NCBI GenBank assembly: GCA_964610335.1
Contig: CAZSVP010000002.1
Coordinates: 78,376 to 142,375, forward strand
Length of the DNA: 64,000 nucleotides
Direction: 5' to 3'
DNA from: an uncultured Candidatus Saccharibacteria bacterium
GTDB taxonomy: Bacteria; Patescibacteriota; Saccharimonadia; CAILAD01; BJGX01
Shown here: in pieces, positions 5,649 to 59,807 of the stretch
How positions within the stretch are numbered: the first letter of the stretch is position 1
How the letters are laid out: every line of letters begins with the position of its first letter
Position numbers and translations under genes: made by a program
The notes under the pieces: generated by a model
Database searches by the model: none
The model's input: only the letters and a program-made list of their open reading frames with translations
Told to the model about the DNA's origin: nothing

Positions 5649-6475
5649 CGTTTACCTCGCTTTCTGCCACGCACTATCATGGCATTGCTATATTTACGTC
5701 GGCGGGTCTTGCGGCCTAAGGCTGGTAATCCCCATGGTGTTTTAGGATTCTTCAATCCAATCGAAGTACCACCTTCACCACCGCCATGTGGATGATCCAC
5801 TGGATTCATAGCCTTACCACGAACGGTTGGGCGAATACCCATGCGTCGTTTACGTCCTGCAGATCCGATCTTGATGTTACCATGGTCTGAATTACCAACT
5901 TGACCGATGGTGGCCATACAGTTTTCGTTAACCAAGCGTACTTCAGATGATGGCAACTTGACCTGAACAAACTTACCTTCCTTGGCAACTACCTGAGCAC
6001 GTGCTCCAGCAGTACGAGCCATCTGAGCACCTCGGCCTGGTTGCAACTCAACATTGGATATTACACTACCTGCGGGGATGGCATGTAGTGGCATACGATT
6101 GCCACTTTTTACTTCTACATCACTACCAGATGCGATAGTACGGCCAACTTTCATGCCTTGAGTGGCTATAACATAGCCCTTCTCACCTGTTTCGGATTGC
6201 AACAGAGCAAGGTAGGCACTGCGGTTTGGATCATACTCTATAGCTTTGACTTCGGCTTTCTCAAAGCTACCTAGGCTATCAACCATGCGAATTGCTCGGC
6301 GAGCACCACCGCCACGATGACGAATAGTGATGCGACCCTGATTATTGCGACCAGATTGTTGTTTTTTGGCAACTAACAAACTCTTCTCTGGCTTTTTCTT
6401 TGTAAGCACAGAGAAGTCAGCCATACTCATGTTACGAGCGGCTGCAGTATTTTGCTTAATAAGTCGCACAGCCAT
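5645..6475 (-). CDS. rplB: 50S ribosomal protein L2
   Basis: 276 aa with L2 motifs (RNMSMADF...GGGEG). Confidence 0.94.
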
Positions 6476-6762
6476 TATTTCTGCTCCTCAATAGTAAAGG
6501 CATCGATTTTTTGGCCTTTTTTTAGGGTGACATAAGCTCGTTTTTGGTCTACTCGTTTACCGATACGACCGTTGAACCGCTTAGTTTTGCCGCCCAGATT
6601 GCTAACTCGAACACCGATTGGCTCTACCTTGAACTGAGCCGATATAGCGGCAACGATGGCAGGCTTATTGGCACTGGTTGGCACACCAAACATGTAGGTG
6701 CCAGTTGCTGCCAAGCGCATGCTCTTCTCAGATATAATTGGTTTGACTATTAATGATTGCAT
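6475..6762 (-). CDS. rplW: 50S ribosomal protein L23 (start taken at the internal Met; ORF is open to 6795)
   Basis: L23-like core MQSLIVKPIISEKS...; a start near 6762 avoids a long overlap with rplD. Confidence 0.85.
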   Translation of the reverse strand: MQSLIVKPIISEKSMRLAATGTYMFGVPTSANKPAIVAAISAQFKVEPIGVRVSNLGGKTKRFNGRIGKRVDQKRAYVTLKKGQKIDAFTIEEQK

Positions 6763-6763
6763 T

Positions 6764-7384
6764 TTAGGCTCCCAACCTTTTTGTAAGCAGCTCAACTGCT
6801 GGCTTCTCGATTAGAATCACGTCGGAATTCATAACATCGTAAACATTGAGTTTGGCAGCTGTAACCACCATTACACCACTAAGATTGCGCAAAGCACGTT
6901 GAGTAGGTGCCTTGGTCTCAGCCAACACTACCAATACATTGCCTTCGACACCAATCTTGTTGAGCAGTTCATCGGCTGATTTAGTCTTACCATCAGCAAT
7001 CATGATAGCTTCAACCACTACGACTTGCTCGGCTTGAGTACTTAGTGCACTCTTGAGAGCAGTATGTGCCATTTTGGTTGGCATGTCCTTGCTATAGTTC
7101 TGAGCACCAGTTGGGCCATGTGCTACACCACCGTGTCGCCAGATTGGCACGCGGCTCGAACCAAATCGTGCTCGTCCTGTTCCTTTTTGACGCCATGGTT
7201 TTTTACCACCACCTGATACTTCGGCTCGAGTAAGTACGCTGGCATGGGCTTGGCGTTGGTTGCCTAGATACATAGTATAAGCCTGACCGATCAGATCAGC
7301 GTTGGTGTCTACACCAAATATCTGCTTATCAAGAGTTACCTCAGCAGCCTTAGTGCCAGTCTTAGTGTAAGCTGCTACTTTCAT
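6764..7384 (-). CDS. rplD: 50S ribosomal protein L4
   Basis: 206-aa ORF with L4-like sequence; operon order. Confidence 0.9.
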   Translation of the reverse strand: MKVAAYTKTGTKAAEVTLDKQIFGVDTNADLIGQAYTMYLGNQRQAHASVLTRAEVSGGGKKPWRQKGTGRARFGSSRVPIWRHGGVAHGPTGAQNYSKDMPTKMAHTALKSALSTQAEQVVVVEAIMIADGKTKSADELLNKIGVEGNVLVVLAETKAPTQRALRNLSGVMVVTAAKLNVYDVMNSDVILIEKPAVELLTKRLGA

Positions 7385-8031
7385 GACTGTGCTCCTCGTA
7401 CTAGTACAACAGTGCCCTTGGCACCTGGTACTGAACCTGCGATTGCTAGCAAGTGACTGCCAGCATCTACCTTCAATACTTTTTGATTCTTGATGGTCAC
7501 TTGGGCATTACCCATACGACCGGCCATCTTCTGGCCACGAAATACGTGTTGTGGATAACCAGCACCAATTGATCCTGGAGCGCGATAGTTGTGACTACCA
7601 TGAGTCTTAGGGCCGCGATGGAAGTTATGTCGCTTGATTGTGCCCGCAAAGCCCTTTCCTTTGGAAACCGCAGTAACTTGGACTGCTTCTCCGGTTTCAA
7701 AAAGATCTGCTTGGAGCACATCACCGACTTTGATGGCTGCTTCTTGAGCAACTTCGGCGTCGGCTTGGTCAGCTGATTTGGCCTCCGGCAAACGGATCTC
7801 CGCTAAGTGAGCACTTTTGGCTTTGGCAGCCTTAAGGTGACCTAGAATGCTCTTACCTGGATGTTTGGCTTCGCCAAAGCCGAGTTGAACTGCATTGTAG
7901 CCATCAGTTTCGTCGGTCTTCAGCTGAGTAACCACACATGGGCCAGCTTCGAGTACAGTAACAGCACTGACTTTTCCGTCAGTGTCGATAAGCTGAGTCA
8001 TTCCGATTTTTTTGGCCAACAATGCTTTCAT
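7381..8031 (-). CDS. rplC: 50S ribosomal protein L3
   Basis: 216 aa with L3-like sequence; it is the first gene of the operon here, with no rpsJ upstream. Confidence 0.92.
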   Translation of the reverse strand: MKALLAKKIGMTQLIDTDGKVSAVTVLEAGPCVVTQLKTDETDGYNAVQLGFGEAKHPGKSILGHLKAAKAKSAHLAEIRLPEAKSADQADAEVAQEAAIKVGDVLQADLFETGEAVQVTAVSKGKGFAGTIKRHNFHRGPKTHGSHNYRAPGSIGAGYPQHVFRGQKMAGRMGNAQVTIKNQKVLKVDAGSHLLAIAGSVPGAKGTVVLVRGAQS

Positions 8032-8125
8032 GTATATCCCTATAAAACAATAATCCTGGCAAACCTAGTGCCGGTTTCCGGGTGAGTCGGACCTGGCGGT
8101 TTCCCAGTTGTCTGTATCGCAAACT

Positions 8126-8155
8126 AGTGTATCAGATTACCCGATCTGGTGTCAA
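8126..8155 (-). promoter_or_regulatory. Candidate sigma70 promoter of the rplC operon (TTGACA-18-TACACT) followed by a ~95-nt leader
   Basis: Minus-strand sequence cTTGACAccagatcgggtaatctgaTACACT lies about 95 nt upstream of the rplC ATG. Confidence 0.5.
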
Positions 8156-8166
8156 GTACATTTTTG

Positions 8167-8418
8167 CTAGAAGCTAAGACTTATACCTAAGCCGTACAGT
8201 CCTAGTAAGGCGCCCACTACCAACAAACCAAATTCTACCCTACGATCTATCCTCAACGACTCTACAAAGTGTACAATTACGAAACCGATTATTAGACCAA
8301 TTGGGATGAGCCTATGACCACCTGGAGCCAGCCATACCGAGCCCAATATCAGGTAAAATGCAGACTTCCAAATAAATGCAAAATCAGATTGAGTAAGAAA
8401 GCGTAAGAGTTTCTTCAT
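8167..8418 (-). CDS. Small integral membrane protein (2-3 TM helices), unknown function
   Basis: 83-aa hydrophobic ORF with its own upstream hairpin terminator. Confidence 0.5.
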   Translation of the reverse strand: MKKLLRFLTQSDFAFIWKSAFYLILGSVWLAPGGHRLIPIGLIIGFVIVHFVESLRIDRRVEFGLLVVGALLGLYGLGISLSF

Positions 8419-9006: not shown

Positions 9007-9522
9007 CTACTCCGAGTACGGCAGAAACCTGTGCTCGACCGGTTCGCCTTCGCCACCGAACAAGAACTCGCCAACTAGTCTCTCATCGGCCAGAAGGCGC
9101 GGCATCCACAAGCGGTCAAATGGCCACATGTCATCGAGTGGCAGATCATCAATACGAAAGGTCTCGGGCCGCATCTCATCTGTCTCTTGTGGCACACCCG
9201 ACCAATTGTCGCAGAGAATCACTTGAGCTTGTTGATTCCAACCCTCAGTAATCGGGATATCACGAAAGTAGAAGTTGAGATAGGCCACCCGCCGCATGGT
9301 GTTGAGCCGGACCGTGGACTCTTCTTCTGTCTCACGATACGCACACTTCCAAACCGACTCACCTTCTTTCGTCTTGCCGCCAAACCCGTTCCATTTGCCG
9401 ACACCAAAGCCCTGCTTCTTCATACCGAGTACTACCTCGCCGCCGCGTCGCAGCAACACAATCGTTACCACTCGCAATGGGCGTGGAACTGTGGCTTTGA
9501 ACTGCTCAAGATTCATGCTCAC
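9007..9522 (-). CDS. NUDIX hydrolase, MutT/NUDT1 (8-oxo-dGTP pyrophosphatase)-like
   Basis: Nudix box GGKTKEGESVWKCAYRETEEES (Gx5Ex7REuxEExG); MTH1-like GFGVGKWNGFGG. Confidence 0.8.
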   Translation of the reverse strand: MSMNLEQFKATVPRPLRVVTIVLLRRGGEVVLGMKKQGFGVGKWNGFGGKTKEGESVWKCAYRETEEESTVRLNTMRRVAYLNFYFRDIPITEGWNQQAQVILCDNWSGVPQETDEMRPETFRIDDLPLDDMWPFDRLWMPRLLADERLVGEFLFGGEGEPVEHRFLPYSE

Positions 9523-13849: not shown

Positions 13850-13933
13850 GAGTTTTATCGAGTGATAAGAACACCAGAAATATAATTGCGTGGCGGCAAC
13901 CCCAATCTGCCCGAAAGCGGACTGAGGCTACCG

Positions 13934-14269
13934 TTATTCTCCCTCCTCAAGAGCTTCGTACAGGATCTTGTAGGCTTCTTCTACCACAGTTGGAGGGTTG
14001 CGCCGAATCAGCTTGCGAGCTGTGTGAACACACACTGTCCAGATGATCATGTAGATTGCCAACGATGCACATAGTCCACCGATCATCACGGCCAGGCCAG
14101 GGTCAGCACTTCCCCCAAAGACCATCGTGAGGCCTACGCCTGTGAACATAGCATGCATCCAAAGCGCCTGGAACCACAACGACCGACTAAACGGATTGGC
14201 ATCGAGATAGCCAGCCAACAGTCCTGCTCCATGATGGAGATACCAGAACTCGTCTGGCTTACGCCTCAT
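13934..14269 (-). CDS. Hypothetical membrane protein (elevated GC)
   Basis: 111 aa with 2-3 TM helices; local GC clearly above the genome background; start/stop overlaps the upstream ORF. Confidence 0.55.
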   Translation of the reverse strand: MRRKPDEFWYLHHGAGLLAGYLDANPFSRSLWFQALWMHAMFTGVGLTMVFGGSADPGLAVMIGGLCASLAIYMIIWTVCVHTARKLIRRNPPTVVEEAYKILYEALEEGE

Positions 14270-14589
14270 GGTCGTTCCTTGGAATCGTCGCGAAGGTCGA
14301 GGCTCTGACGCTGCGACAGCCGGACGATGTCCCGACGGCCACCGTAGTAGACCCGAAGCTTGGCGTTGACCAGCTTGATGGGCTCACCCACTACCACAAA
14401 CAGCAAGGGTAAGCCAAAGGCTAGCAACAAGCCGATCGGAATGGAAAGCAAGCTCCATAGCAGGTAGCTCCAGCGCTCGTTGAGAAGTGCCATCAGACAG
14501 CCACCTGTGATCACCACGCTGCACATCAGCATGATCACTATCTCGTAGGTCACACTCAGATTGCGTTGGTAATTGGTATCGTCGTACAA
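14266..14589 (-). CDS. Hypothetical membrane protein (elevated GC)
   Basis: 107 aa with two TM helices and a C-terminal soluble segment; translationally coupled to the next ORF. Confidence 0.55.
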   Translation of the reverse strand: MYDDTNYQRNLSVTYEIVIMLMCSVVITGGCLMALLNERWSYLLWSLLSIPIGLLLAFGLPLLFVVVGEPIKLVNAKLRVYYGGRRDIVRLSQRQSLDLRDDSKERP

Positions 14590-14640
14590 GACAAAGCCTC
14601 CAGGTTGAGAAAGAACAATTGTTGGCGATAATACGCCGTC

Positions 14641-14674
14641 GGGCGGTCTCGGAGCGCGATGTCCGAGACCGCCC
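14641..14674. repeat. Perfect 13-bp inverted repeat hairpin (GGGCGGTCTCGGA-8nt-TCCGAGACCGCCC)
   Basis: Seen in sequence between two high-GC ORFs; no U-run follows. Confidence 0.7.
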
Positions 14675-14698
14675 TAGTTGATAGCGCCTGAGGTGCCA

Positions 14699-14947
14699 CT
14701 AAGCGGATTCGTCAGGTGATTCCGCGCGGCTCAAGCGCTCTTGCACCACTCGCAGGGTTGCCTCGTCGATTGAGTCGGCTGGTCCTGCGGCTGGATGCTT
14801 GGCCACTTCTGCATCAGTCGGCTTACGCCGCTGGCTGAGTGGTGTTACCACGTTTGAGACGTGGTGGGTTTCATCGGCCAGACTCTCGTCTGGCGCTGGC
14901 ACGGTATCGTCATCGCCTGGCATTGCTGCCTCCTGGAATGATGACAA
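14699..14947 (-). CDS. Hypothetical acidic/Pro-rich protein (high GC)
   Basis: 82 aa; GC-rich codons; RBS GGAGG upstream. Confidence 0.45.
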   Translation of the reverse strand: MSSFQEAAMPGDDDTVPAPDESLADETHHVSNVVTPLSQRRKPTDAEVAKHPAAGPADSIDEATLRVVQERLSRAESPDESA

Positions 14948-15128
14948 CCTCCGCCCGTGCGCCCCATCGTATTTTGGATGGAAGCCTCTCCGGCAAGCCG
15001 GCTCGAGGTGCAGATATTGTGCTACTAAAACCTATTAATTGCAAGCATAACTACCACAAATTGTAACAAGCCAAGAAATATAGGATAATAAGCATAAGTA
15101 TATATAACAACTAGCAAAGAAAGTCACG

Positions 15129-15551: not shown

Positions 15552-15582
15552 CAAAGGCTAAGGTTGTTTCAAAATCAACAGT

Positions 15583-15607
15583 AAAGAGCCCCGCTCGGGG
15601 CTCTTTA
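15583..15607. terminator. Bidirectional intrinsic terminator (aaaGAGCCCCGctCGGGGCTCttt)
   Basis: 8-bp GC stem with flanking A-run and T-run; terminates fusA (minus) and the plus ORF. Confidence 0.85.
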
Positions 15608-15635
15608 CTTAGATCTTACATGAAGAATTTGCTAT

Positions 15636-17747
15636 CTAGGATGTACCAGCTTCACGAGCAGCAGTATATTTGCCCTTGAGCTCCTCGGCTACTTGGCCAG
15701 GAACCTCAGCATAGTGGTCAAATTCCATAGCGTAAGCTGCACGACCCTGAGTCATACTGCGCAAGCTAGTAGAGTAGCCAAACATCTCAGCTAGTGGTAC
15801 AAACGCCACTATGTGCTTAGCACCACTACGATCTTCCATGTTCTCAACACGACCACGCTTGGCATTGATATCACCTATCACATCACCCATGAACTCTTCA
15901 GGAGTAGTTACTTCTACTTTCATGGTAGGCTCCATAATAACTGGAGTGGCCTTGCGAACACCCTCTTGGAGCGCCATGCTACCGGCAATCTTAAAGGCAA
16001 CTTCACTAGAGTCCACCTCGTGGTAACTACCATCGTAGAGTTTGCAATGAACATCTACTACTGGATAACCAGCAATTACGCCGTTCTGCATGGCTTCTTT
16101 GACGCCAGCTTCTACAGGATTTATATACTCCTTGGGGATAGCACCACCAACGATAGCGTTTTCAAATTCAAATATCTTGTGTTTGTCGTCTTCTTCAGTT
16201 TTGGCAAGTGGGCTAAGCTCTAGCCAGACATGACCAAATTGACCACGACCACCTGATTGGCGCACAAACTTGCCTTCCACTTGAGCAGTACTCTTAATGG
16301 TTTCACGGAAGGCTACCTGCGGACGACCAACATTGGCCTCGACCTTGAACTCACGCTTCATACGGTCTACCAACACGTCGAGATGCAACTCACCCATACC
16401 CGCAATGATAGTCTGGCCAGACTCTTCGTCAGTAGTTACACGGAAGGTAGGATCTTCTTCGGCCAAGCGAGCTAGTGCCAAACTCATCTTCTCTTGGTCG
16501 GCTTTGGTCTTAGGCTCAACGGCAATACTAATAACTGGCTCAGGAAATTCAATGCTTTCAAGCAACACGTGTTGCTTCTCATCGCACAGAGTGTTACCAG
16601 TCACAGTGTTTTTGAGTCCTACTGCAGCAGCTATTTCACCAGCGTAGACTTCGTTTACCTCTTCGCGATTGTTGGCGTGCATACGTACGATGCGGCCAAT
16701 TCGCTCTTTCTCGCCGGTACTTACATTTACTACATAGCTACCTGATTTGAGCGTGCCCGTATAAACACGGAAAAAGCACAGCTTACCAACAAATGGATCA
16801 GTTGCTATCTTAAACGCCAACCCAGCAAATGGCTCATCATCGCCCACCTTGATTACTTTTTCTTCGCCAGTCTTAGCATCAGTGGCAAGTGGCGGAGCGA
16901 TATCGAGAGGGCTTGGCAAGTAGTCTACTATCAGATCAAGTAGCTTCTCTACCATCACGCCACGACCATCGCCACCGCTTACTATGAAGAAGTCGCCGCG
17001 CAGCACGCTCTTGCGGATTACTTCTTTGATTTCTTCTTTGGTCAATTCGCCGCCGTCGAGGTATTTCTCAAGCAATGTGTCGTCAGATTCTAAAGCAGCT
17101 TCGATCAAATGATTGCGATACTTCTCAGCCTTCTCGCGCATGTCTTCAGGGATCTCGCCTTCAATCAGCTCCTTGTCAGTATAGTCACTATAGGTATAGG
17201 CTTTCATATCCACTAAGTCAATCACGCCATTGATCTCTTGTTCGAAGCCAATTGGCAGATGAATAGGATAAGCATGACGGCTCAAGCGCTCATGAATACT
17301 CTCGAGCGACTTGTAGAAGTCACCACCGGTTTGGTTGATCTTATTAATAAAACAGATGCGGGGCACACCATATTTGTTGGCTTGGCGCCAAACAGTTTCG
17401 GACTGGGGCTCCACACCCATCTTACCGTCAAAGATAACGGCAGCGCCGTCAAGCACACGCAAGCTACGCTCTACTTCGACCGTAAAGTCGATGTGACCAG
17501 GAGTGTCGATGATGTTGATACGATGCTTGTTCCAAAAACAGGTGGTAGCAGCCGAAGTAATAGTGATCCCACGCTCTTGTTCCTGTTCCATCCAGTCCAT
17601 GGTAGCCTCGCCCTGATGAACCTCACCAATCTTGTGCACCTTACCAGTACGGTAAAGGATGCCCTCGGTAACGGTAGTCTTACCGGCATCGATGTGAGCA
17701 ATAGTCCCTATATTACGAGTAACCTCAAGTGAATATTCACGTGCCAT
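15636..17747 (-). CDS. fusA: Elongation factor G
   Basis: 703 aa with [17 protein letters not shown] and EF-G domains IV/V. Confidence 0.97.
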
Positions 17748-17877
17748 AACGTGTTGTAGTATCCTTTCTTAAATTCTAGTGCGTAAAAGTAATGTAAAGA
17801 CGGTCAGCACTAAGCTGACTGTTTGCGGATAATTATAGCTGATTTCTTGATAGGACACAAGCAACAAACATTAATGT

Positions 17878-17907
17878 ATTGACATTTAGAGGCTTTGCTG
17901 GTTAAAT
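17878..17907 (+). promoter_or_regulatory. Candidate promoter (TTGACA-18-TTAAAT) for the plus-strand high-GC cassette, divergent from fusA
   Basis: attGACAtttagaggctttgctggTTAAATatataac lies about 55 nt upstream of the GTG at 17961. Confidence 0.5.
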
Positions 17908-17960
17908 ATATAACTAGCTGTACCAACCATATCCATCCAGCACTCTCAGGGAGGTCCTAA

Positions 17961-18362
17961 GTGAGTGCAAGTCAGCAAGAAAAGATAGAGCAGTACCGTT
18001 TCTGGGGCGAGCGAGTCGCGAGTGGAGACACCGCGTTCGTGATGCCACTGGCCCGTGCCATCAGGTCTGGTGAGATCACCGCACCGAAGGCAGGGACCAC
18101 TCAGAAGCGGATCCGCGAGGTCATGCGCCAGCGCTTTCACGAGGCCCACCAGAGGGCGATCTGGTGCAAGAAGTACGGCGAGCGCATGAACGGCCGCGGC
18201 GTGCTATGCAAGCTCGGCCTGGAGCTGGCGGAGTCGGCCAACTGGGGCAACCTGCTCCACGTGACGCCCACCGACTTCGGAGCCAGCTTCGAAGAGCTAT
18301 ACGAACTCGCCGATCACTTCGGTGTAAGCGACCGCCTGCAGTTCGTCGCCATGGCGAGCTGA
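17961..18362 (+). CDS. Hypothetical protein (about 62% GC; GTG start after GGGAGG)
   Basis: 133 aa; RBS GGGAGG 5 nt upstream; strong GC shift relative to the neighbours. Confidence 0.6.
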   Translation: MSASQQEKIEQYRFWGERVASGDTAFVMPLARAIRSGEITAPKAGTTQKRIREVMRQRFHEAHQRAIWCKKYGERMNGRGVLCKLGLELAESANWGNLLHVTPTDFGASFEELYELADHFGVSDRLQFVAMAS

Positions 18363-18408
18363 TCGCGAGTTCAACATGGGTGCCTCATCGGGGGAAAGGC
18401 ACCACCCG

Positions 18409-18453
18409 TTCGGGGCTCCGGCACTTGGCCGGAGCCCCGGGTGGGTCATTTTT
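18409..18453 (+). terminator. Intrinsic terminator (CGGGGCTCCGGC-loop-GCCGGAGCCCCG followed by a T-run)
   Basis: 12-bp GC stem followed by gtcatttttattt. Confidence 0.8.
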
Positions 18454-18531
18454 ATTTATATTGACTTTATTGACCAAAAGTTGTAGCATAGATTCCCGAT
18501 CGCTACATTCGCCCACCAAGGAGGCATAACT

Positions 18532-18981
18532 ATGCCTAGCGACGCATACCACACGTTGGCACTGAAGTCCGCTACCCTAGCTCACTACCGTGCCGTCCAT
18601 GAAGGAAGTGGTACTCACGAGCAGTACAGACTGGTACTCAAGGCCATCGATGCCGGTGACATCATACCTGTTGAGATCGGCACCAGCTACCGAGAACTCG
18701 GAGCCCATAATCGCCAATGGATTCGTAATCTGTTGGAGGATGCAAGCTTCGACGGTCTCCCGCAGCACATGCCAGGGGATGTGAGGGTCGCTTACAGGCA
18801 GCTGATCAAGCAACTCGAGCTGCTCAATAGCCTGCAGCATCCTCGCCTGCGGCTCACCCTCGGCCAGCTCAAGATCACTCTGCCGCAGCTGCGCCAACTC
18901 GGCGAGCCGCTTGGTCTGAGCCACCTCGTGGACGACGCCGACCTCGCAGTCGGCAGCTGGCACCACAAGAAGTCCGCCTGA
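18532..18981 (+). CDS. Hypothetical protein (high GC)
   Basis: 149 aa; RBS AAGGAGG; promoter-like TTGACT-17-TAGCAT upstream. Confidence 0.6.
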   Translation: MPSDAYHTLALKSATLAHYRAVHEGSGTHEQYRLVLKAIDAGDIIPVEIGTSYRELGAHNRQWIRNLLEDASFDGLPQHMPGDVRVAYRQLIKQLELLNSLQHPRLRLTLGQLKITLPQLRQLGEPLGLSHLVDDADLAVGSWHHKKSA

Positions 18982-19011
18982 TTCACTCGCCCGTCAACCA
19001 GGAGGTTTCTC

Positions 19012-19308
19012 ATGGGCAAACATGTGGTAACCAACAAGGAGATCAAACGGCTGTACCGTCGGCTCGAAGGGCTGCCATTTGTGCACAAGGTGCACACCTG
19101 CGCCCTCCAGCCAGGAGCAGCATCGGGCAAGCCTCGCGTGGAGTACCGCCACGGCAGTGCCGAGCCTGGCTCGCACCGCGTACCGGCAGTCATTAAGGCT
19201 GGAGGCTGTGCCCAACGGGTGTTCATCACCCTACGCGTTGACGAAGGCGAGTCCTTCAGCGACAAGCTCAAGTTGTTGCTCGCCGAGCCCGAGGTGATCG
19301 CCAACTGA
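19012..19308 (+). CDS. Hypothetical protein (high GC)
   Basis: 98 aa; RBS AGGAGG; co-oriented and closely spaced with the previous ORF. Confidence 0.55.
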   Translation: MGKHVVTNKEIKRLYRRLEGLPFVHKVHTCALQPGAASGKPRVEYRHGSAEPGSHRVPAVIKAGGCAQRVFITLRVDEGESFSDKLKLLLAEPEVIAN

Positions 19309-19365
19309 CACCGTCCCCGTCTGAGACCGGATGCAAAACGCTCCTGTTTCGGCCGGGGCGTTTTG

Positions 19366-20034
19366 CTATTTATAGGTTAGTTCTACAAAGAATCGGCTTT
19401 TACTCGGCTTTTGAATTTGTTTGATAAGATCTGCCATACTTTCCATATACGGTGATTTTCCAAAGTCAGTGCCAAATTCACTCCAAAACATCTCACCATA
19501 TGGTGTCTCCTCACGCAGAGTGCCGGTCGGGTTTCGTCCATAAAACAAATGAAAGCATATCTGGCTGACTGGCTCACCACCTTCGTTGATAATAATATAG
19601 CCATCACCGCGATGTGTGAGTTTGCAACTCAAACCAGTCTTTTCCATCAACTCACGTGTAGCAGCCTCGGCAACCGTTTCTCCCAAATGTAGTTTGCCAT
19701 ACGGAAATCCAACTTGGCCAATCAGTGGTTGGTGTTTGCGTCGATACAACAGCCACTGCCCAGCCTTGTTCTGTACTGCCACTAGTGTGACTATCTTCGG
19801 TTGCAACCTAGTTTTCAGTGTGCGCAGGCTTACTTGGTCGACATACAATTTGCCTTGAGTCGTGAGACTATATAGACCATCGGCTCGTTTCTCTACCAAT
19901 CCCTCACGCATCAGTGCTCGCAGGTGATACATGAAGTGATTGCTCTCCAAATGCTTAGGTTTTAGTTGTGAAAATCGTAAGCTATCCGCCGCAATTAGCT
20001 TAGCTAGTATTTCTTTCTGGATAACATGCATCAT
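19366..20034 (-). CDS. Winged-HTH + NUDIX domain protein (reversed-order NrtR-like regulator/hydrolase)
   Basis: 222 aa; N-terminal MarR/ArsR-like wHTH (NHFMYHLRALMREGLVEK); C-terminal Nudix box GKLHLGETVAEAATRELMEKTGL; native low GC. Confidence 0.7.
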   Translation of the reverse strand: MMHVIQKEILAKLIAADSLRFSQLKPKHLESNHFMYHLRALMREGLVEKRADGLYSLTTQGKLYVDQVSLRTLKTRLQPKIVTLVAVQNKAGQWLLYRRKHQPLIGQVGFPYGKLHLGETVAEAATRELMEKTGLSCKLTHRGDGYIIINEGGEPVSQICFHLFYGRNPTGTLREETPYGEMFWSEFGTDFGKSPYMESMADLIKQIQKPSKSRFFVELTYK

Positions 20035-20198
20035 GTAAGTAAGTATTAAGTAAAATGGCAGAAGTTAAAAAGTGCTTACTCGCATTATTTCAGTCAAAAA
20101 ATTTTGAGTCAAGCATAATTACTTCTACATATCTACACTGACTGATTGGTTAGCTCAAAGTACGCTTAGAGTGTTCTTTGACAACTTGGAGGAAACCA

Positions 20199-20900
20199 AT
20201 GAGCAAGCTCACTACTATCGATACCCTACCCATCCCCATGCTTGTTCTCGACAGCGGCCCATGCGCTGGCAAGTCCACCATTCTCTCAGCCATCGAAGAT
20301 CGGTTCGACGAGCAAGTTCTGACAGTGCCTGAAGCTGCAACCCAAGTACTGGCTGAAGAGGTTGTAGCCAAGCCCGATCAGAATCTGCTGGAGTGGTACG
20401 ACCGAATCGACGCTGCCGAGTCCAAGGCTGCAATCTGGCGCGAATATAGACATCACCTGCAAGATGCTGTGCTCAAGCGCATGATCGAGCTCGAAACTGT
20501 TGCTCAGCAACAGGCCTGCGAACAAGGCAGGAAGCTGATCGTCGTGGACCGTGGAGCTGCCGGAGTGAGTCATTTCCACCCTGATGGCAATGCTTGCTGG
20601 TCCAAGCTCACCTGGGCACGAATCCACCATCTGGATGCAGTGTCCGCACTCAGCCGATACCATTCTGTCATCTTGTTGGAATCACTGGCAATACACCATC
20701 CAGAGTTGTACAAAAAGCACTGCGCCAGCAACCCAGTTCGAGGCGAGACTACTCAAGAGGCAGTGGCGCAGCAATGCGGCATTCGTGCTGCCTGGAGCAA
20801 ACACGCACGCTGCGCCCATATCTGCAACTTTGGGCGCAGCATCGATGATGTGACCAGGCTGGTTTACAACCACATCGAACAAACAATTGGCGAACTATGA
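20199..20900 (+). CDS. P-loop NTPase / small kinase-like protein (AAA_28/AAA_33-like), elevated GC
   Basis: Walker A DSGPCAGKST and Walker B-like LIVVDRG; GGAGG precedes the ATG at 20199 (the ORF is open from 20178). Confidence 0.6.
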   Translation: MSKLTTIDTLPIPMLVLDSGPCAGKSTILSAIEDRFDEQVLTVPEAATQVLAEEVVAKPDQNLLEWYDRIDAAESKAAIWREYRHHLQDAVLKRMIELETVAQQQACEQGRKLIVVDRGAAGVSHFHPDGNACWSKLTWARIHHLDAVSALSRYHSVILLESLAIHHPELYKKHCASNPVRGETTQEAVAQQCGIRAAWSKHARCAHICNFGRSIDDVTRLVYNHIEQTIGEL

Positions 20901-21283
20901 GCGGCAATCGCTGCCAAGTACAGGCTGCTGTATGGCGAGCCATGCGACTGGCTGAAGTATCACTCGACACTCCGGGAGCCACCGAAGTAGTTCGAGCTAT
21001 CACTTGGATCATTATGCAGCAAGCCATGATCCTCCAGCGCTTCCCACTTGATCAGAATGATCAGCACACCACGCAAGGATTCTGCCCAGACAATTACTGG
21101 CCACTCAAGTTCGGCAAGTTCTTGCACCGCGCGCAAACAATCGGCCTAGACTATCCCGAAGGTCGCCAAGCCATCGCCGAGCACGCCGCTACAGGAGTTG
21201 GCCTAATGGCATCGGTCTGGCGTTTGCATGGCTCGCCACCTCATATAAACGAGGTAGCTACCATTACAGTCAAACTCGAGTAG
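20897..21283 (+). CDS. Hypothetical protein (high GC), translationally coupled to the P-loop gene
   Basis: 128 aa; ATGA start/stop overlap with the upstream gene. Confidence 0.5.
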   Translation: MSGNRCQVQAAVWRAMRLAEVSLDTPGATEVVRAITWIIMQQAMILQRFPLDQNDQHTTQGFCPDNYWPLKFGKFLHRAQTIGLDYPEGRQAIAEHAATGVGLMASVWRLHGSPPHINEVATITVKLE

Positions 21284-21374
21284 ATCCGACTAGCCTGTCA
21301 AAGTTATGCTTGGTAAAGCATGATTACCCAAGTATAATCACCCCAGATCTTTCCCACTAGCCGAGGAGCAAACA

Positions 21375-22034
21375 ATGCCGACAACCGAAGCCCCAGTAAT
21401 CACCGAGCTTGAAGAAGTTGTGGCTCTCGAAGCTGAGCTACAAGCCATGTGCGCTGAGTACGACAGTCTTGGTGTCGAAATCTCGCGTTTGCAAGCCGTG
21501 CGAAGCGATATCGCTTTTGCAGTCACATTCCACGACAAGTCGCGCGAAGACGGAGAACCCTTGGTCAAGCGCTACAACCGAGTGGTGCGTCAAGCCGCAG
21601 CCGATCTGCTAGCCGAGCGCCAACTGGGGTGGTGCCTGGCAGGTGGACACTTCTGCAATGAGGCTGAGCTGTCATGTGCGAAAGCCATGTTCAGCCGCCG
21701 GAGCTACGACGTGAAGGACGGCTACGAAGACCACCATAAGTCAGTAATTGCCACAGCCTGCGCAGCTCACCCCGCTGGCGGATACCAAAATCCTGACTGG
21801 GGTCACAGCAAGCGGTTGGTAGCACGCAACGTTCACAACGTTGGGTTGGTGAGAAGAGCGATCAGTCGCTATCTGTTTGACTGCGGTTTCGAGAACCGAG
21901 AGCTTCACAGGTTCTTCGCCGAAGCAGGCCTGCCAACAGACATGTACTACCGCGATCGTGATGGCTGGTACTTCCGGCCAATCCCCGGACAAGACGGTCC
22001 GATGTACGGCCGAAAAGTCATCAATCTCGGCTAG
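21375..22034 (+). CDS. Hypothetical Cys/His-rich protein (high GC)
   Basis: 219 aa; promoter TTGGTA-17-TATAAT and RBS GAGGAG upstream. Confidence 0.55.
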   Translation: MPTTEAPVITELEEVVALEAELQAMCAEYDSLGVEISRLQAVRSDIAFAVTFHDKSREDGEPLVKRYNRVVRQAAADLLAERQLGWCLAGGHFCNEAELSCAKAMFSRRSYDVKDGYEDHHKSVIATACAAHPAGGYQNPDWGHSKRLVARNVHNVGLVRRAISRYLFDCGFENRELHRFFAEAGLPTDMYYRDRDGWYFRPIPGQDGPMYGRKVINLG

Positions 22035-22055
22035 CACGAGAACCAAACTTTCAAG

Positions 22056-22089
22056 AGCCCCGACGAGCCCCGATTCGTCGGGGCTCGTC
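22056..22089 (+). repeat. GC-rich hairpin (GACGAGCCCCGA-ttcg-TCGGGGCTCGTC), member of the GAGCCCCG hairpin family
   Basis: Perfect 12-bp stem directly after the 21375..22034 ORF; no U-run. Confidence 0.7.
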
Positions 22090-22142
22090 ATATCTCCATA
22101 TAATGCAAAGAATTATTTCTAGCAGTGAAGTACTAGAAACTC

Positions 22143-22195
22143 AAAAACCCCAGCGCGAGACGTACTAATTGCTACGTTGAGCGTTGGGATTTTTG
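22143..22195. terminator. Bidirectional terminator (aaaaaCCCCAGCGC...GCGTTGGGattttt) closing rpsG and the plus-strand cassette
   Basis: Nested hairpin flanked by an A-run and a T-run, 40 nt downstream of the rpsG stop. Confidence 0.6.
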
Positions 22196-22234
22196 TTGTG
22201 ACGACGTAATTTGCGCTAGAAATGGTTCGAACGA

Positions 22235-22711
22235 CTAGTAGCGAGCGAAGTGAGCAAAAGCCTTATTAGCCTCAGCCATCTGGTGAGCATCTTGCTTCTT
22301 CTTAACAGCATCGCCTTCTTCGTTGAAAGCAGCAATCAGCTCTTTGCTAAATTTAACATCAAATCCAGCACCACTCTTGTTGCGTGCCGAGTCCATAAGC
22401 CACATCAGGGCATAGTGAACCTTGCGGTCGCCTTTGACTTCCATAGGGACTTGGTAGTTGGCACCACCGATACGTCGAGATTTAACCATCACTTGTGGAC
22501 TAACGTTCTTAACTGCAGTTTCGAGGACCTCGAGTGGCTCTTTCTTGGTCTTAGCTGCTGCTTGTTCGAGTGCGCTGTAGACCAGCTTCTCAGCCATTCG
22601 CTTTTTACCACTTACCATGACTTTGTTGATGGTCTTAGTAACCAACACTGAATTGTAAACAATGTCAGGAGTAAGTTCGCGCTTGAGAGATTTAGTAGTT
22701 TTACGAGGCAT
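22235..22711 (-). CDS. rpsG: 30S ribosomal protein S7
   Basis: 158-aa ORF with S7-like sequence. Confidence 0.93.
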   Translation of the reverse strand: MPRKTTKSLKRELTPDIVYNSVLVTKTINKVMVSGKKRMAEKLVYSALEQAAAKTKKEPLEVLETAVKNVSPQVMVKSRRIGGANYQVPMEVKGDRKVHYALMWLMDSARNKSGAGFDVKFSKELIAAFNEEGDAVKKKQDAHQMAEANKAFAHFARY

Positions 22712-22714
22712 GGG

Positions 22715-23137
22715 TTATTCCTTCTTACCACCTTGAGACTTAGTACCATATTTGCTGCGGCCTTGTTTACGACCATCAACTCCAGCCGTATCAAGATTGC
22801 CACGAACTATGTGGTAACGCACACCACCAAGATCCTTAACTCGACCACCACGTACTAGCACCACTGAGTGCTCTTGCAAGTTGTGTCCCTCACCAGGTAT
22901 GTAAGCGGTTACTTCCATACCGTTGGTTAGGCGCACACGAGCCACCTTACGCAAAGCCGAGTTTGGCTTACGAGGAGTTTGTGTATACACCTTCACACAT
23001 ACACCACGTTTAAACGGCGCATTGAGCGGACGAGTCCGCACACTAAGCGCGTTAAACGAGCGCCCGAGGGCTGGAGACTTAGTCTTGGTAGACTTGGTCT
23101 TGCGAGGTTTTCGAATTAATTGATTGATGGTTGGCAT
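22715..23137 (-). CDS. rpsL: 30S ribosomal protein S12
   Basis: 140 aa beginning [10 protein letters not shown] with PNSALRK, canonical S12. Confidence 0.95.
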
Positions 23138-53086: not shown

Positions 53087-53116
53087 GCCCCCGATTCACA
53101 ATGTGGAATCGGGGGC
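53087..53116 (-). terminator. Hairpin terminator (GCCCCCGATTC-loop-GAATCGGGGGC) after a high-GC ORF
   Basis: 11-bp stem lying 20 nt downstream of the stop at 53139 (minus strand). Confidence 0.6.
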
Positions 53117-53138
53117 GTAGCCGCAGGACAGCAGGTGA

Positions 53139-53666
53139 TCAACCGACGTGGACAGTCTGGCCGACGATGGGCTTCTCTGGTGGCTGGGCCATGTCGGCGC
53201 GCAGCGAGTTGCGGATGCTTGTGACCTTGGCATCGTCAGGTTGGTCGCCCTTGCCCAGTTGTCGATCGCGAGCATCGCGCTCGCGCGTGTTGGCGGCCCA
53301 CTCGGCCTCGGACTTGAAGCCATCGAGATAAAGCAGCCATCGCTTCCAGACCTCGTAGGCACGCTTGACGCGATCGATGTCTGCTGGACGAGCGATGATG
53401 AGCTTGAAGCTGATCGTATGTTCCTTGGTATCGACAGTGATTGCCTCGTCGCCGATGGCTCGCAGCATGGCCTTGAGCACCTTACGGAACTCCGGCCTGA
53501 TGTAGTAGCACATCCCCAGGTCGTCGAGCATGCCACGGTCCACTTCGAACTGGTACCCGTGCTGACCGATCTCGCCGTACATGACGTCGTGGTAGCCCAG
53601 AGAATCGTCCTCATGCCAGACGGCTCTGAACAGCGTGTCGGTTGTGTATTCGTATTTCTTGGACAT
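53139..53666 (-). CDS. Hypothetical protein (about 60% GC)
   Basis: 175 aa; RBS GGGAGG; upstream promoter TTGTAA-17-TATACT. Confidence 0.6.
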   Translation of the reverse strand: MSKKYEYTTDTLFRAVWHEDDSLGYHDVMYGEIGQHGYQFEVDRGMLDDLGMCYYIRPEFRKVLKAMLRAIGDEAITVDTKEHTISFKLIIARPADIDRVKRAYEVWKRWLLYLDGFKSEAEWAANTRERDARDRQLGKGDQPDDAKVTSIRNSLRADMAQPPEKPIVGQTVHVG

Positions 53667-53737
53667 GGTTGCCTCCCTGCGGCAAGATCAAATGCAAGAG
53701 ACCATCTCCAACATTCGGCGGTAGTATACAATAAAAG

Positions 53738-55269: not shown

Positions 55270-55326
55270 GTGTTACGTCCAGATCGGTTTATCTGGAGAA
55301 ATTCGGACCTCAACAGAAGGAATGAC

Positions 55327-55639
55327 CATGTTCGATAGCATTCCACAGTATTTCCGGTACGCACTCGGTGCTGCCGGAATCATCACTGCACTCTTCCTAC
55401 TCGGATGGGTGCTTTCTGCGGCTGCGAACCACCACTGGCATGCAGTCGTCCACTCAGACCAACGCACCGCACGCCGACTTCTGGTGGCCAAATGGGTACT
55501 AGTCCCATGCTACTTCGGTGGCGTGATGGTGGCCATCGGTCTTGTGCCGTCGGCCGCACCATTGATCATGGCGGTCGCGCTGGTGATCGGGTTGACCTGG
55601 GTGATCGTGACGATTCGAATCGAGAATCGACTCGCATAA
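55327..55639 (+). CDS. Hypothetical membrane protein (about 57% GC, 3 TM helices)
   Basis: Start at MTMFDS after AGAAGGAA; the ORF is open from 55241, but that overlaps the promoter. Confidence 0.55.
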
Positions 55640-55662
55640 CCATTCCAATCGTGAGGTTTAAA

Positions 55663-55702
55663 CCCTCCGGGAACACCATCCCCGGAGGGTGTTCTTGTTT
55701 TT
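55663..55702 (+). terminator. Intrinsic terminator (CCCTCCGGG-loop-CCCGGAGGG followed by tgttcttgttttt)
   Basis: 9-bp GC stem plus T-run; overlaps the dnaE stop, so it may serve the convergent genes. Confidence 0.75.
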
Positions 55703-59399: not shown

Positions 59400-59444
59400 A
59401 CCGCTCACCGTTGGTAGACCACCAGGATCACTAAGGAGGTGACT

Positions 59445-59807
59445 ATGTCTACCGAGTTGACAATCCAGCTGGTGAAGCGGCTGTTCGAAGCATTCTTGGG
59501 TGGCCAAGGTCGTCTCCGTGTGGAGAACGTGCCAGGTCACTACACCCGAGTGATGGTTCGAGTCGAAGGTGAGGACCTGGAAGTGCACATCGCGCTCTCC
59601 GATACCATGCCTCGGGTGCTGCGAGTGATCTACTGCCCGCAGCATCCAGGCAATTCCGCCGTCATGTTCACCACCGAGGCCGATGCCAAGTACCAGGTAC
59701 GGATGCTTGGCATCAACGACGAAACGCCCGGACACATCATCAAGAAGAGGGTTCACGAACACTTCTTGACTGTGACTGAGCGCCAGTCGCACTCGCTGGC
59801 CAGCTGA
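59445..59807 (+). CDS. Hypothetical protein (about 60% GC)
   Basis: About 120 aa; RBS AAGGAGG 6 nt before the ATG at 59445. Confidence 0.6.
   Translation: MSTELTIQLVKRLFEAFLGGQGRLRVENVPGHYTRVMVRVEGEDLEVHIALSDTMPRVLRVIYCPQHPGNSAVMFTTEADAKYQVRMLGINDETPGHIIKKRVHEHFLTVTERQSHSLAS

Follow-up and report, generated by a model that had tools for sequence, protein, structure and literature searches.

Here, we describe a divergently transcribed gene group of Candidatus Saccharibacteria (TM7) in a stretch of 64,000 nucleotides (GenBank assembly GCA_964610335.1, contig CAZSVP010000002.1, positions 78,376 to 142,375). This whole stretch is called the window below, and positions are counted from its first letter. 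In the window, a P-loop gene of the AAA_28 family and the small gene orf128 face a gene for a winged helix-turn-helix (wHTH) protein with a Nudix domain. Comparison with relatives shows that the conserved unit is the wHTH-Nudix gene and the divergent AAA_28 gene, with or without a CYTH gene, plus an orf128-like gene, and that the downstream gene orf219 lies outside it. We consider it about an even chance (probability near 0.5) that the group is a Nudix-regulated pair for nucleoside or nucleotide salvage or processing, possibly linked to nicotinamide adenine dinucleotide (NAD) or ADP-ribose. What would be new here is a putative Nudix-regulated nucleotide-salvage divergon containing an undescribed domain; the AAA_28 and Nudix families themselves are already known. 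A sequence-only reading of the same DNA had proposed a three-gene cassette of the P-loop gene, orf128 and orf219, resembling toxin-antitoxin, nucleotide-modifying or phage-defence modules. The nucleotide-related role is the best supported of these. The cassette does not hold, as orf219 has a promoter-like site of its own and occurs only in the closest relatives, and as the Nudix gene had been left out.

Homologues of the P-loop gene, orf128 and the Nudix gene share their locus in every relative with a spanning contig. The divergent wHTH-Nudix/AAA_28 pair also persists beside rpsG in L009, L018 and L022 (relatives' loci carry L numbers), whose Nudix proteins match that of the window at E = 1e-86 to 2e-70. 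The AAA_28 proteins of L018 and L022 are only about 30% identical to the P-loop protein of the window, yet the position of the Nudix gene is kept. In L009, L018, L022, L094 and L095 the conserved wHTH-Nudix gene faces an AAA_28 or orf128-like gene, and Saccharibacteria AAA_28 genes are without exception divergent from it. Orf128-like genes occur in the window clade, L009, L094 and L095; L094 and L095 have the Nudix and orf128-like genes without a recognisable AAA_28 gene. The nearest outgroup, L009, has AAA_28, CYTH and orf132 (orf128-like) genes in this order, all three overlapping in one operon; the window lineage has lost the CYTH gene, which leaves its P-loop gene and orf128 directly coupled. 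The P-loop/Nudix locus is fixed next to rpsG and vertically inherited across deep Saccharibacteria splits. L018 (6606-7411) lacks orf128; downstream of its AAA_28 gene come an 87-aa gene that weakly matches PRA-PH (MazG-like) and a gene for a 181-aa protein similar to the core of class-II aminoacyl-tRNA synthetases.

The three open reading frames (ORFs) of the sequence-only reading are on the plus strand at the coordinates given there, except that the P-loop protein has 233 residues and not 234, the 234th codon being the stop. The ATGA overlap of the P-loop gene and orf128 was confirmed at 20897-20900, and with it the translational coupling to a small partner, which proved to be conserved. Substitutions in all three genes concentrate at third codon positions. 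The ratio of nonsynonymous to synonymous substitution rates (dN/dS), computed against the sequences of relatives, was 0.14 for the P-loop gene, 0.04-0.07 for orf128, which is constrained like a housekeeping gene, and 0.22 for orf219, the last value coming from few substitutions. With dN/dS values of 0.04-0.22, purifying selection acts on all three, and they are genuine coding genes.

These data bear on the suggestion of a toxin-antitoxin pair, with a kinase toxin and a small antitoxin as in zeta/epsilon systems. The one feature that speaks for it is the architecture, a P-loop gene overlapping a small ORF. Here, however, the small gene comes after that of the supposed toxin and is the more strongly conserved of the two, most relatives of the P-loop protein are single fused enzymes, orf128-like genes persist without a P-loop gene in L094 and L095, and the locus is chromosomal, syntenic and vertical rather than patchy or mobile. 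Pfam, NCBIfam and PADLOC yielded no toxin-antitoxin or defence match. The defence-system models of PADLOC-DB v2 matched neither the P-loop protein nor orf128 nor orf219 at E ≤ 1, and none of the three had a match in NCBIfam or PHROGs. We thus regard a toxin-antitoxin pair as very improbable, and the phage-defence suggestion is likewise not supported, given these null results, the fixed, vertical locus and the housekeeping-like constraint of orf128.

The P-loop protein is a stand-alone, divergent member of Pfam family AAA_28 (PF13521; E = 1.5e-11, 45.2 bits with a cut-off of 27), its residues 20-209 aligning to positions 7-156 of the 164 in the model; the earlier description as small-kinase-like was therefore apt. 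Both motifs that had been read from the sequence are present, the Walker A D-S-G-P-C-A-G-K-S-T and the Walker B-type LIVVDRG (D117). The start is the ATG at 20199, preceded by GGAGG at 20188-20192, and homologues use the equivalent start. Nine close homologues with 70-91% identity are all at the same locus. Identity is 76% to the L005-L008 lineage and 47% to L009, for which the Nudix protein and rpsG give 63% and 79%, respectively.

We take AAA_28 to include the ribosylnicotinamide kinase domain of NadR. The P-loop protein resembles that group in its score above the gathering threshold, in the Walker A Lys/Ser, in a Walker B of the hhhhD-R-G type and in a small-kinase layout of about 200 aa. 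It differs from NadR in having no TIGR01526 match, no nicotinamide mononucleotide (NMN) adenylyltransferase domain and no PDB relative by sequence, and in the change of the first Walker A Gly to Ser. As nadR is associated with the regulator NrtR (PMC2330246), so the P-loop gene is tied to a Nudix-type regulator. The sequence-only reading had named homology to a housekeeping kinase, with metabolic enzymes as partners, as what would speak against a cassette of its kind; what we found is a widespread, salvage-associated kinase-fold family, but no curated housekeeping kinase model, that of NadR included, matched, nor do the partners correspond to known metabolic enzymes.

A scan of 185,579 GTDB species genomes returned 478 relatives of the P-loop protein, the best 80 of which were examined, 67 with a clean gene call. 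They represent a 'GGPCAGK[ST]' subfamily found across bacteria of the candidate phyla radiation (CPR), Planctomycetota, Bdellovibrionota, Firmicutes and Bacteroidota. The P-loop protein is 24-34% identical to the AAA_28-CYTH relatives, with the shared motifs PE.AT, DRG, R.E and W..H. A C-terminal extension of about 165 aa is present in 49 of the 67, and in 47 of these it is a CYTH triphosphate-tunnel domain, whose profile matches the NeuTTM-type structures 2fbl/3typ at E ~ 3e-23; Pfam CYTH was matched individually by 26 of 52 sequences (the 49 extensions and three separate CYTH proteins). The other two extensions (L053 and L055; genes at about 5977-7011) are 2-thiouracil desulfurase (PF04463) in place of CYTH, a further tie of the AAA_28 family to nucleobase salvage. 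In three stand-alone forms (L009, L017 and L021), CYTH is encoded by a gene of its own directly downstream. A CYTH profile made from 50 relatives was run on the window ORFs and the relatives' loci; it matched in L009, L015, L017 and L021 and found nothing among the ORFs of the 64-kb window, so that a relocation of CYTH within the window was rejected. NCBIfam gave only P-loop-level matches for the relatives, and a search of the literature library returned no paper linking CYTH with AAA_28 or CYTH with NrtR. In architecture the fusions are analogous to plant TTM1/TTM2, which join a uridine-kinase-like domain to a triphosphate tunnel (PMC9582702). Since the kinase domain of the plant proteins comes from another family (UCK), the resemblance is convergent.

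Genes of the AAA_28 family recur beside NrtR, Nudix and nucleoside-salvage genes. AAA_28-CYTH genes are single-copy and lie in ordinary metabolic neighbourhoods. Among 149 immediate neighbour genes NUDIX was the commonest family (7), followed by His_Phos_1 and NrtR_WHD (4 each); PNP, Pribosyltran and TK also occurred, and no defence-type family was in the top 25 by frequency of the 119 neighbour families. A canonical NrtR (NUDIX + NrtR_WHD) stands just upstream on the same strand in six AAA_28 loci (L025, L030, L031, L033, L052 and L062, from metagenome-assembled genomes of Bacilli, Bacillales and Muribaculaceae), a histidine phosphatase or thymidine-kinase-family gene often intervening before the AAA_28-CYTH gene. 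This suggests that the uncharacterised AAA_28-CYTH family belongs to NrtR regulons.

Within this family the window protein has diverged. Residues conserved in at least 80% of the 67 relatives are T18, G19, E45, E99, D117, R118, D122, Y126, R181, E183, W199 and H202. The window clade retains K25, S26, E45, E99, D117, R118, R181, E183, W199 and H202, that is, the ATP site and most family-wide residues, with K25, S26 and LIVVD117 invariant in the clade. Replaced are T18, G19, D122, A125, Y126, H159, D192 and K218. D122 is 100% conserved elsewhere, T18, G19 and Y126 are family-invariant or nearly so, and H159, D192 and K218 are highly conserved (at least 85%); the first Walker A position, Gly in 67 of 67 distant relatives, is Ser (G19S, SGPCAGKS) in the window clade. 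The protein also has an insertion of about 30 residues relative to the family. The residue changes together with the loss of CYTH point to a shift in substrate or in mode of action.

One form of such a change would be that in this sub-lineage the P-loop protein has ceased to be a kinase and acts as a nucleoside triphosphate (NTP)-binding regulator or scaffold, a pseudo-enzyme or plain NTPase, in complex with orf128. The replacements listed above, D122, A125 and Y126 of which are intact in L009, the insertion, the loss of CYTH from the locus and the window, and the tight translational coupling to orf128 would all fit this. The retained residues, however, are invariant in the clade, dN/dS of 0.14 indicates continuing constraint, and the loss of substrate-side residues is equally compatible with a change of substrate. 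We therefore find a pseudo-kinase quite improbable.

The wHTH-Nudix protein matches Pfam NUDIX at E = 5.7e-10 (residues 82-174) and has weak winged-helix matches at its N-terminus. Among PDB and NCBIfam entries, the closest relatives of the Nudix domain are the ADP-ribose (ADPR) pyrophosphatase domain of NadM-Nudix (2qjo, E = 2.7e-5). The Nudix box, GKLHLGETVAEAATRELMEKTG, has RELMEK instead of REUxEE, the last catalytic E being replaced by K; since the box is nearly intact, hydrolase activity is possible. The protein is reminiscent of NrtR, the Nudix-related transcriptional regulator of NAD metabolism (PMC2330246), in that an ADPR-pyrophosphatase-like Nudix domain is combined with a winged helix, that the gene is divergent from its presumed target operon and that palindromes lie in the intergenic region. 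However, the wHTH is N-terminal and the Nudix domain C-terminal, there is no NrtR_WHD match, and the NrtR model NF050029 gives only E = 0.11. Because the domain order is reversed and NrtR_WHD is absent, the protein is not a member of the NrtR family. The window has a further Nudix hydrolase gene, of the stand-alone type, at 9007-9522 (171 aa; E = 2e-12 for Pfam NUDIX); it adjoins an ABC-F gene and is kept in L001 and L005.

The AT-rich intergenic region of 164 bp between the divergent genes (20035-20198) carries TTGA(G/C)TCAA in two to three copies (Table 1), a candidate operator. The exact copy is the only one in the 64-kb window, and a one-mismatch copy stands 15 bp upstream of it. Alignment of the intergenic regions shows the copies to be kept in the window, L001, L005, L009, L018, L094 and L095, among them lineages with differing downstream genes. 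As the exact palindrome overlaps the -35 box of the promoter-like site of the Nudix gene, autoregulation and simple promoter conservation are both possible. Another element, GTTCTTTGACAAC, immediately upstream of the ribosome-binding site (RBS) of the P-loop gene, is conserved in the window, L001, L005 and L095 and degenerate in L009, L018 and L022. It holds a perfect TTGACA, too near the P-loop start codon for a -35 box of that gene.

The third member of the unit, orf128, has an undescribed domain. A word-indexed search found only six close homologues, whereas an exhaustive HMMER search found 90 relatives at E ≤ 1e-3, 23 of them at E ≤ 1e-10. The orf128 homologue P0018 carries the NCBI name Candidatus Saccharibacteria, and the nearest GTDB genome is likewise a metagenome-assembled one of Saccharibacteria. 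The family has an all-alpha core of about 85 aa (residues 33-117 of orf128) with the consensus W..ER.YQ..KF...DD.HT..G....WW..Q...Y.HRA..LGL..P.GRQALAK..AT..G.LES..R..G.LP.PG..SG. Orf128 matches the family model over this core, with W37, R78, G89-R90-Q91, G112 and P115 conserved. The Saccharibacteria subfamily has an added N-terminal helix, and family-conserved E, D, K and E are changed to Q, N, E and A. No Pfam family covers the domain in any of 89 members, MazG, PRA-PH and Nmad included, and sequence and profile searches of PDB had no match for orf128. The orf128-like domain is an undescribed family, without a Pfam model, a solved structure or, in the sources consulted, a name.

An AlphaFold2 model made with the broad alignment has five long helices and a short C-terminal one (predicted local distance difference test, pLDDT, 95; predicted template modelling score, pTM, 0.84); a first model from the six close sequences (pLDDT 58.6) was not used. 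In Foldseek searches against PDB and BFVD, the high-confidence model had no match at E < 1. The best structural resemblance was weak, to phage 'nucleotide modification associated' and NTP-pyrophosphohydrolase proteins (TMq 0.42-0.52, Foldseek E > 1), so that the modelled likeness to nucleotide enzymes is suggestive only. With the MazG-like and 'nucleotide modification associated' phage proteins orf128 shares a helical make-up, a length of about 110-130 aa and relatives in phage nucleotide-metabolism clusters, but it has no MazG, PRA-PH or Nmad match and no acidic metal-binding motifs.

The orf128-like domain keeps company with N-glycosidase-like domains and with nucleotide-metabolism genes of phages. 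An N-terminal DUF4406 (N-deoxyribosyltransferase-like) or Nuc_deoxyrib_tr (nucleoside 2-deoxyribosyltransferase) domain is present in 14 of 88 other members, sometimes before two orf128-like copies, and a phage-like contig has the order orf128-like, deoxynucleoside monophosphate kinase (DNMK), dCMP deaminase, DUF4406. In phage-like contigs (L101-L103, about 7001-8270), a 103-aa orf128-like gene lies between lysis genes (Amidase_2) and a block of HTH_17, Acb5 and DNA-methyltransferase genes, Acb5 being of the anti-CBASS type. An IMG/VR viral-contig scan with a 9-sequence alignment of the family found two GC-rich contigs encoding an orf128-like protein. A DUF4406-(orf128-like)x2 protein is encoded in a defence-island-like region with an AAA_15/21 ATPase, a HIT protein and a PD-(D/E)xK nuclease. 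A tblastn search with the DUF4406-fused relative P0025 against 50,697 phage records gave no match.

All these genes are part of a GC-rich island of 4.5 kb that splits the rpsL-rpsG/fusA-tuf operon. As a rule this operon is contiguous. The island holds seven genes: orf133, orf149, orf98, the wHTH-Nudix gene, the P-loop gene, orf128 and orf219. This seven-gene island was found at the same site in every close relative with a spanning contig (L001-L008 and L100), and since the place is the same in all of them, the island is inherited and not a recent insertion. The elevated GC content reported earlier was borne out: 54.6% in the P-loop gene, 54.5% in orf128 and 56.7% in orf219, against 47.4% in the window; the wHTH-Nudix gene is host-like at 44%. 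In every relative, the plus-strand island genes lie 7-15 GC points above the host, even though synonymous sites in the flanking genes have reached saturation. Actinobacteria are known hosts of Saccharibacteria, and the high GC content of the orf128-like relatives from outside Saccharibacteria, phage contigs included, fits an acquisition from such hosts or their phages.

The island and the phage contigs bring in another explanation, namely a conflict module (anti-phage, anti-host or phage-derived) that depletes or modifies the nucleotide pool and resides in a variable island collecting foreign genes. Consistent with it are the island's GC excess over the host in every relative, a gene content that varies by lineage, a reverse transcriptase beside the Nudix gene in one relative (L094), and the fast evolution of the P-loop protein relative to the Nudix protein and rpsG. 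So are the orf128-like genes near Acb5, HTH_17 and DNA methyltransferases and in IMG/VR contigs, and the DUF4406-(orf128-like)x2 protein among ATPase, HIT and nuclease genes. On the other hand, PADLOC matches none of the three proteins, the P-loop/Nudix pair is fixed and vertical across deep splits, AAA_28-CYTH genes are single-copy among ordinary metabolic genes, and the low dN/dS of orf128 is unlike that of arms-race genes. Moreover, the island of the window encodes no nuclease, TIR, Sir2 or other effector domain. On balance a conflict module seems unlikely. In L094 (GCA_038230095.1, 3846-5274) the reverse transcriptase, an RVT_1 protein of 322 aa with an FADD motif, adjoins the conserved Nudix gene together with an ORF of 163 aa, and very GC-rich, Cys-rich orphan ORFs accompany them in the fusA-rpsG island.

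In the salvage or processing pair that we favour, the wHTH-Nudix protein would be a metabolite-sensing repressor acting on the TTGA(G/C)TCAA palindromes of the shared promoter region, by analogy with NrtR and with reversed domain order. The kinase-fold P-loop protein would phosphorylate a nucleoside-like substrate at the expense of ATP, and orf128 would bind or process the nucleotide product. The pathway would be of the salvage type, possibly NAD- or ADP-ribose-related. With the CYTH gene deleted in the sub-lineage and family-invariant residues changed outside the ATP site, the substrate or the mode of action has probably shifted.

Several points weigh against this salvage reading. Given the loss of D122, G19, Y126, H159, D192 and K218, the P-loop protein may no longer be a kinase; NCBIfam has no family for it at E ≤ 1, the NadR model TIGR01526 included, and sequence and profile searches of PDB found no solved structure. 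NrtR adjacency was seen in only 6 of 67 loci, and neighbourhoods are mostly heterogeneous (119 families among 149 neighbours). Conservation of the palindromes could reflect promoter rather than operator function. Orf128-like relatives in phage regions beside anti-defence genes, or in a defence-island-like region, also fit a conflict role, and salvage leaves the persistence of the excess GC unexplained. Finally, we know of no AAA_28-CYTH or orf128-like family member with a known biochemical function.

Table 1. Features at the rpsG-fusA island of the window
Feature	Position	Strand	Remarks
fusA	15636-17747	-	left island border
orf133, orf149, orf98	17961-19308	+	left island half; GC 59-63%, GC at third codon positions (GC3) 70-80%
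wHTH-Nudix gene	19366-20034	-	222 aa; divergent from P-loop gene
Promoter-like TTGACT-17-AATAAT	20112-20084	-	would serve Nudix gene
TTGA(G/C)TCAA palindrome, 9 bp	20089-20097		1 mismatch; candidate operator
TTGA(G/C)TCAA palindrome, 9 bp	20104-20112		exact; candidate operator
TTGA(G/C)TCAA palindrome, 9 bp	20150-20158		2 mismatches; candidate operator
GTTCTTTGACAAC element	20173-20185	+	precedes P-loop gene RBS (20188-20192)
P-loop gene	20199-20900	+	stand-alone divergent AAA_28 member
orf128	20897-21283	+	128 aa; overlaps P-loop gene
Promoter-like TTGGTA-17-TATAAT	21310-21338	+	upstream of orf219
orf219	21375-22034	+	219 aa; lineage-restricted orphan
12-bp perfect GC-rich hairpin GACGAGCCCCGA/TCGGGGCTCGTC	22062-22089	+	after orf219; -27.3 kcal/mol, z = -6.2
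Bidirectional terminator-like hairpin	22145-22198	both	between orf219 and rpsG; z = -4.5 and -5.7
rpsG	22235-22711	-	right island border

Orf219 is a recently acquired orphan with its own promoter-like site, outside the conserved unit. Among 5.8 billion proteins it has two homologues, both in the closest relatives, and it had no match in Pfam or, by tblastn, among the 50,697 phage records. At its position L005-L008 have an unrelated 172-aa gene and a 238-aa minus-strand gene, and L009 has a 188-aa minus-strand gene; homology to the 172-aa gene of L005 was rejected (BLASTP E = 0.064, noise). The earlier label 'Cys/His-rich' overstated its composition (C 2.7%, H 3.7%), which is lower in these residues than that of the P-loop protein. 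The promoter that had been assigned to it is present as a 10/12 match, but this is a consensus match only, in a region with 7 promoter-like sites against 4.0 ± 2.2 expected. Read-through from orf128 into orf219 is possible, because the gap between them holds no strong hairpin (z = -1.1).

The 12-bp hairpin said to end orf219 is present but lacks a U-tract. A bidirectional terminator-like hairpin about 60 nt beyond it has a U-run after the stem on each strand, and it is predicted to terminate the rpsL-rpsG transcript as well as plus-strand transcripts. With such a hairpin directly after rpsG, fusA must carry its own promoter in the window lineage. The octamer GAGCCCCG occurs in 7 copies (0.9 expected) and forms three hairpins, at 15580-15609, 18404-18446 and 22055-22089. 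That it marks a repeat or a mobile-element or attC-like cassette boundary was rejected, these being ordinary terminator-type hairpins only. Similar CCCCGACGAGCC...GTCGGGGCTCGTC hairpins follow orf128 and orf172 in L005.

The genes of the left half, orf133, orf149 and orf98, have no Pfam family. They are found in L001-L008 and absent from L009, and their dN/dS is 0.1-0.37. Each is preceded by a strong RBS, GC-rich hairpins follow orf133 and orf98, and the similarity of orf133 to orf149 is marginal (E = 0.04). The operon split spans 15636-23137, and the island genes are mostly on the strand opposite to the ribosomal operon. Elsewhere in the window, short GC-rich islets (54-63% against 47%) lie at 13900-15000, 17900-19400, 34400-35200, 46100-46700, 53100-53700, 55300-55700 and 59400-59800 and hold small ORFs without a significant Pfam match. 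The tuf/fusA islet, with three small minus-strand ORFs, is also present in L001-L006, and islet composition is kept across relatives despite saturated synonymous divergence. In the segments 33975-34349 and 35283-35369 Rfam finds four tRNAs and ARAGORN three; ARAGORN labels 34275-34349 'tRNA-Asp (atc)' and 34204-34273 'tRNA-???', and misses 33975-34048.

As judged by the models applied, the locus is no defence or toxin-antitoxin cassette, and a false lead is thereby removed. In its place, one hypothesis joins three uncharacterised pieces: the AAA_28-CYTH proteins, a Nudix regulator of reversed architecture and a new all-alpha domain. Saccharibacteria grow as epibionts of other bacteria. Being unable to synthesise most nucleotides and cofactors, they rely on these hosts for the supply, so that any salvage module that is conserved and regulated, and placed beside genes of the core translation machinery, is a candidate route of acquisition. 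Tentatively, and with more doubt than confidence, the divergon may represent a previously unrecognised metabolite-responsive pathway of Saccharibacteria, for example for salvage of a host-derived ribosylated pyridine or an ADP-ribose-derived compound, and the orf128-like domain may be a new enzyme fold or nucleotide-binding fold that lacks a solved relative and recurs in the nucleotide-metabolism clusters of phages.

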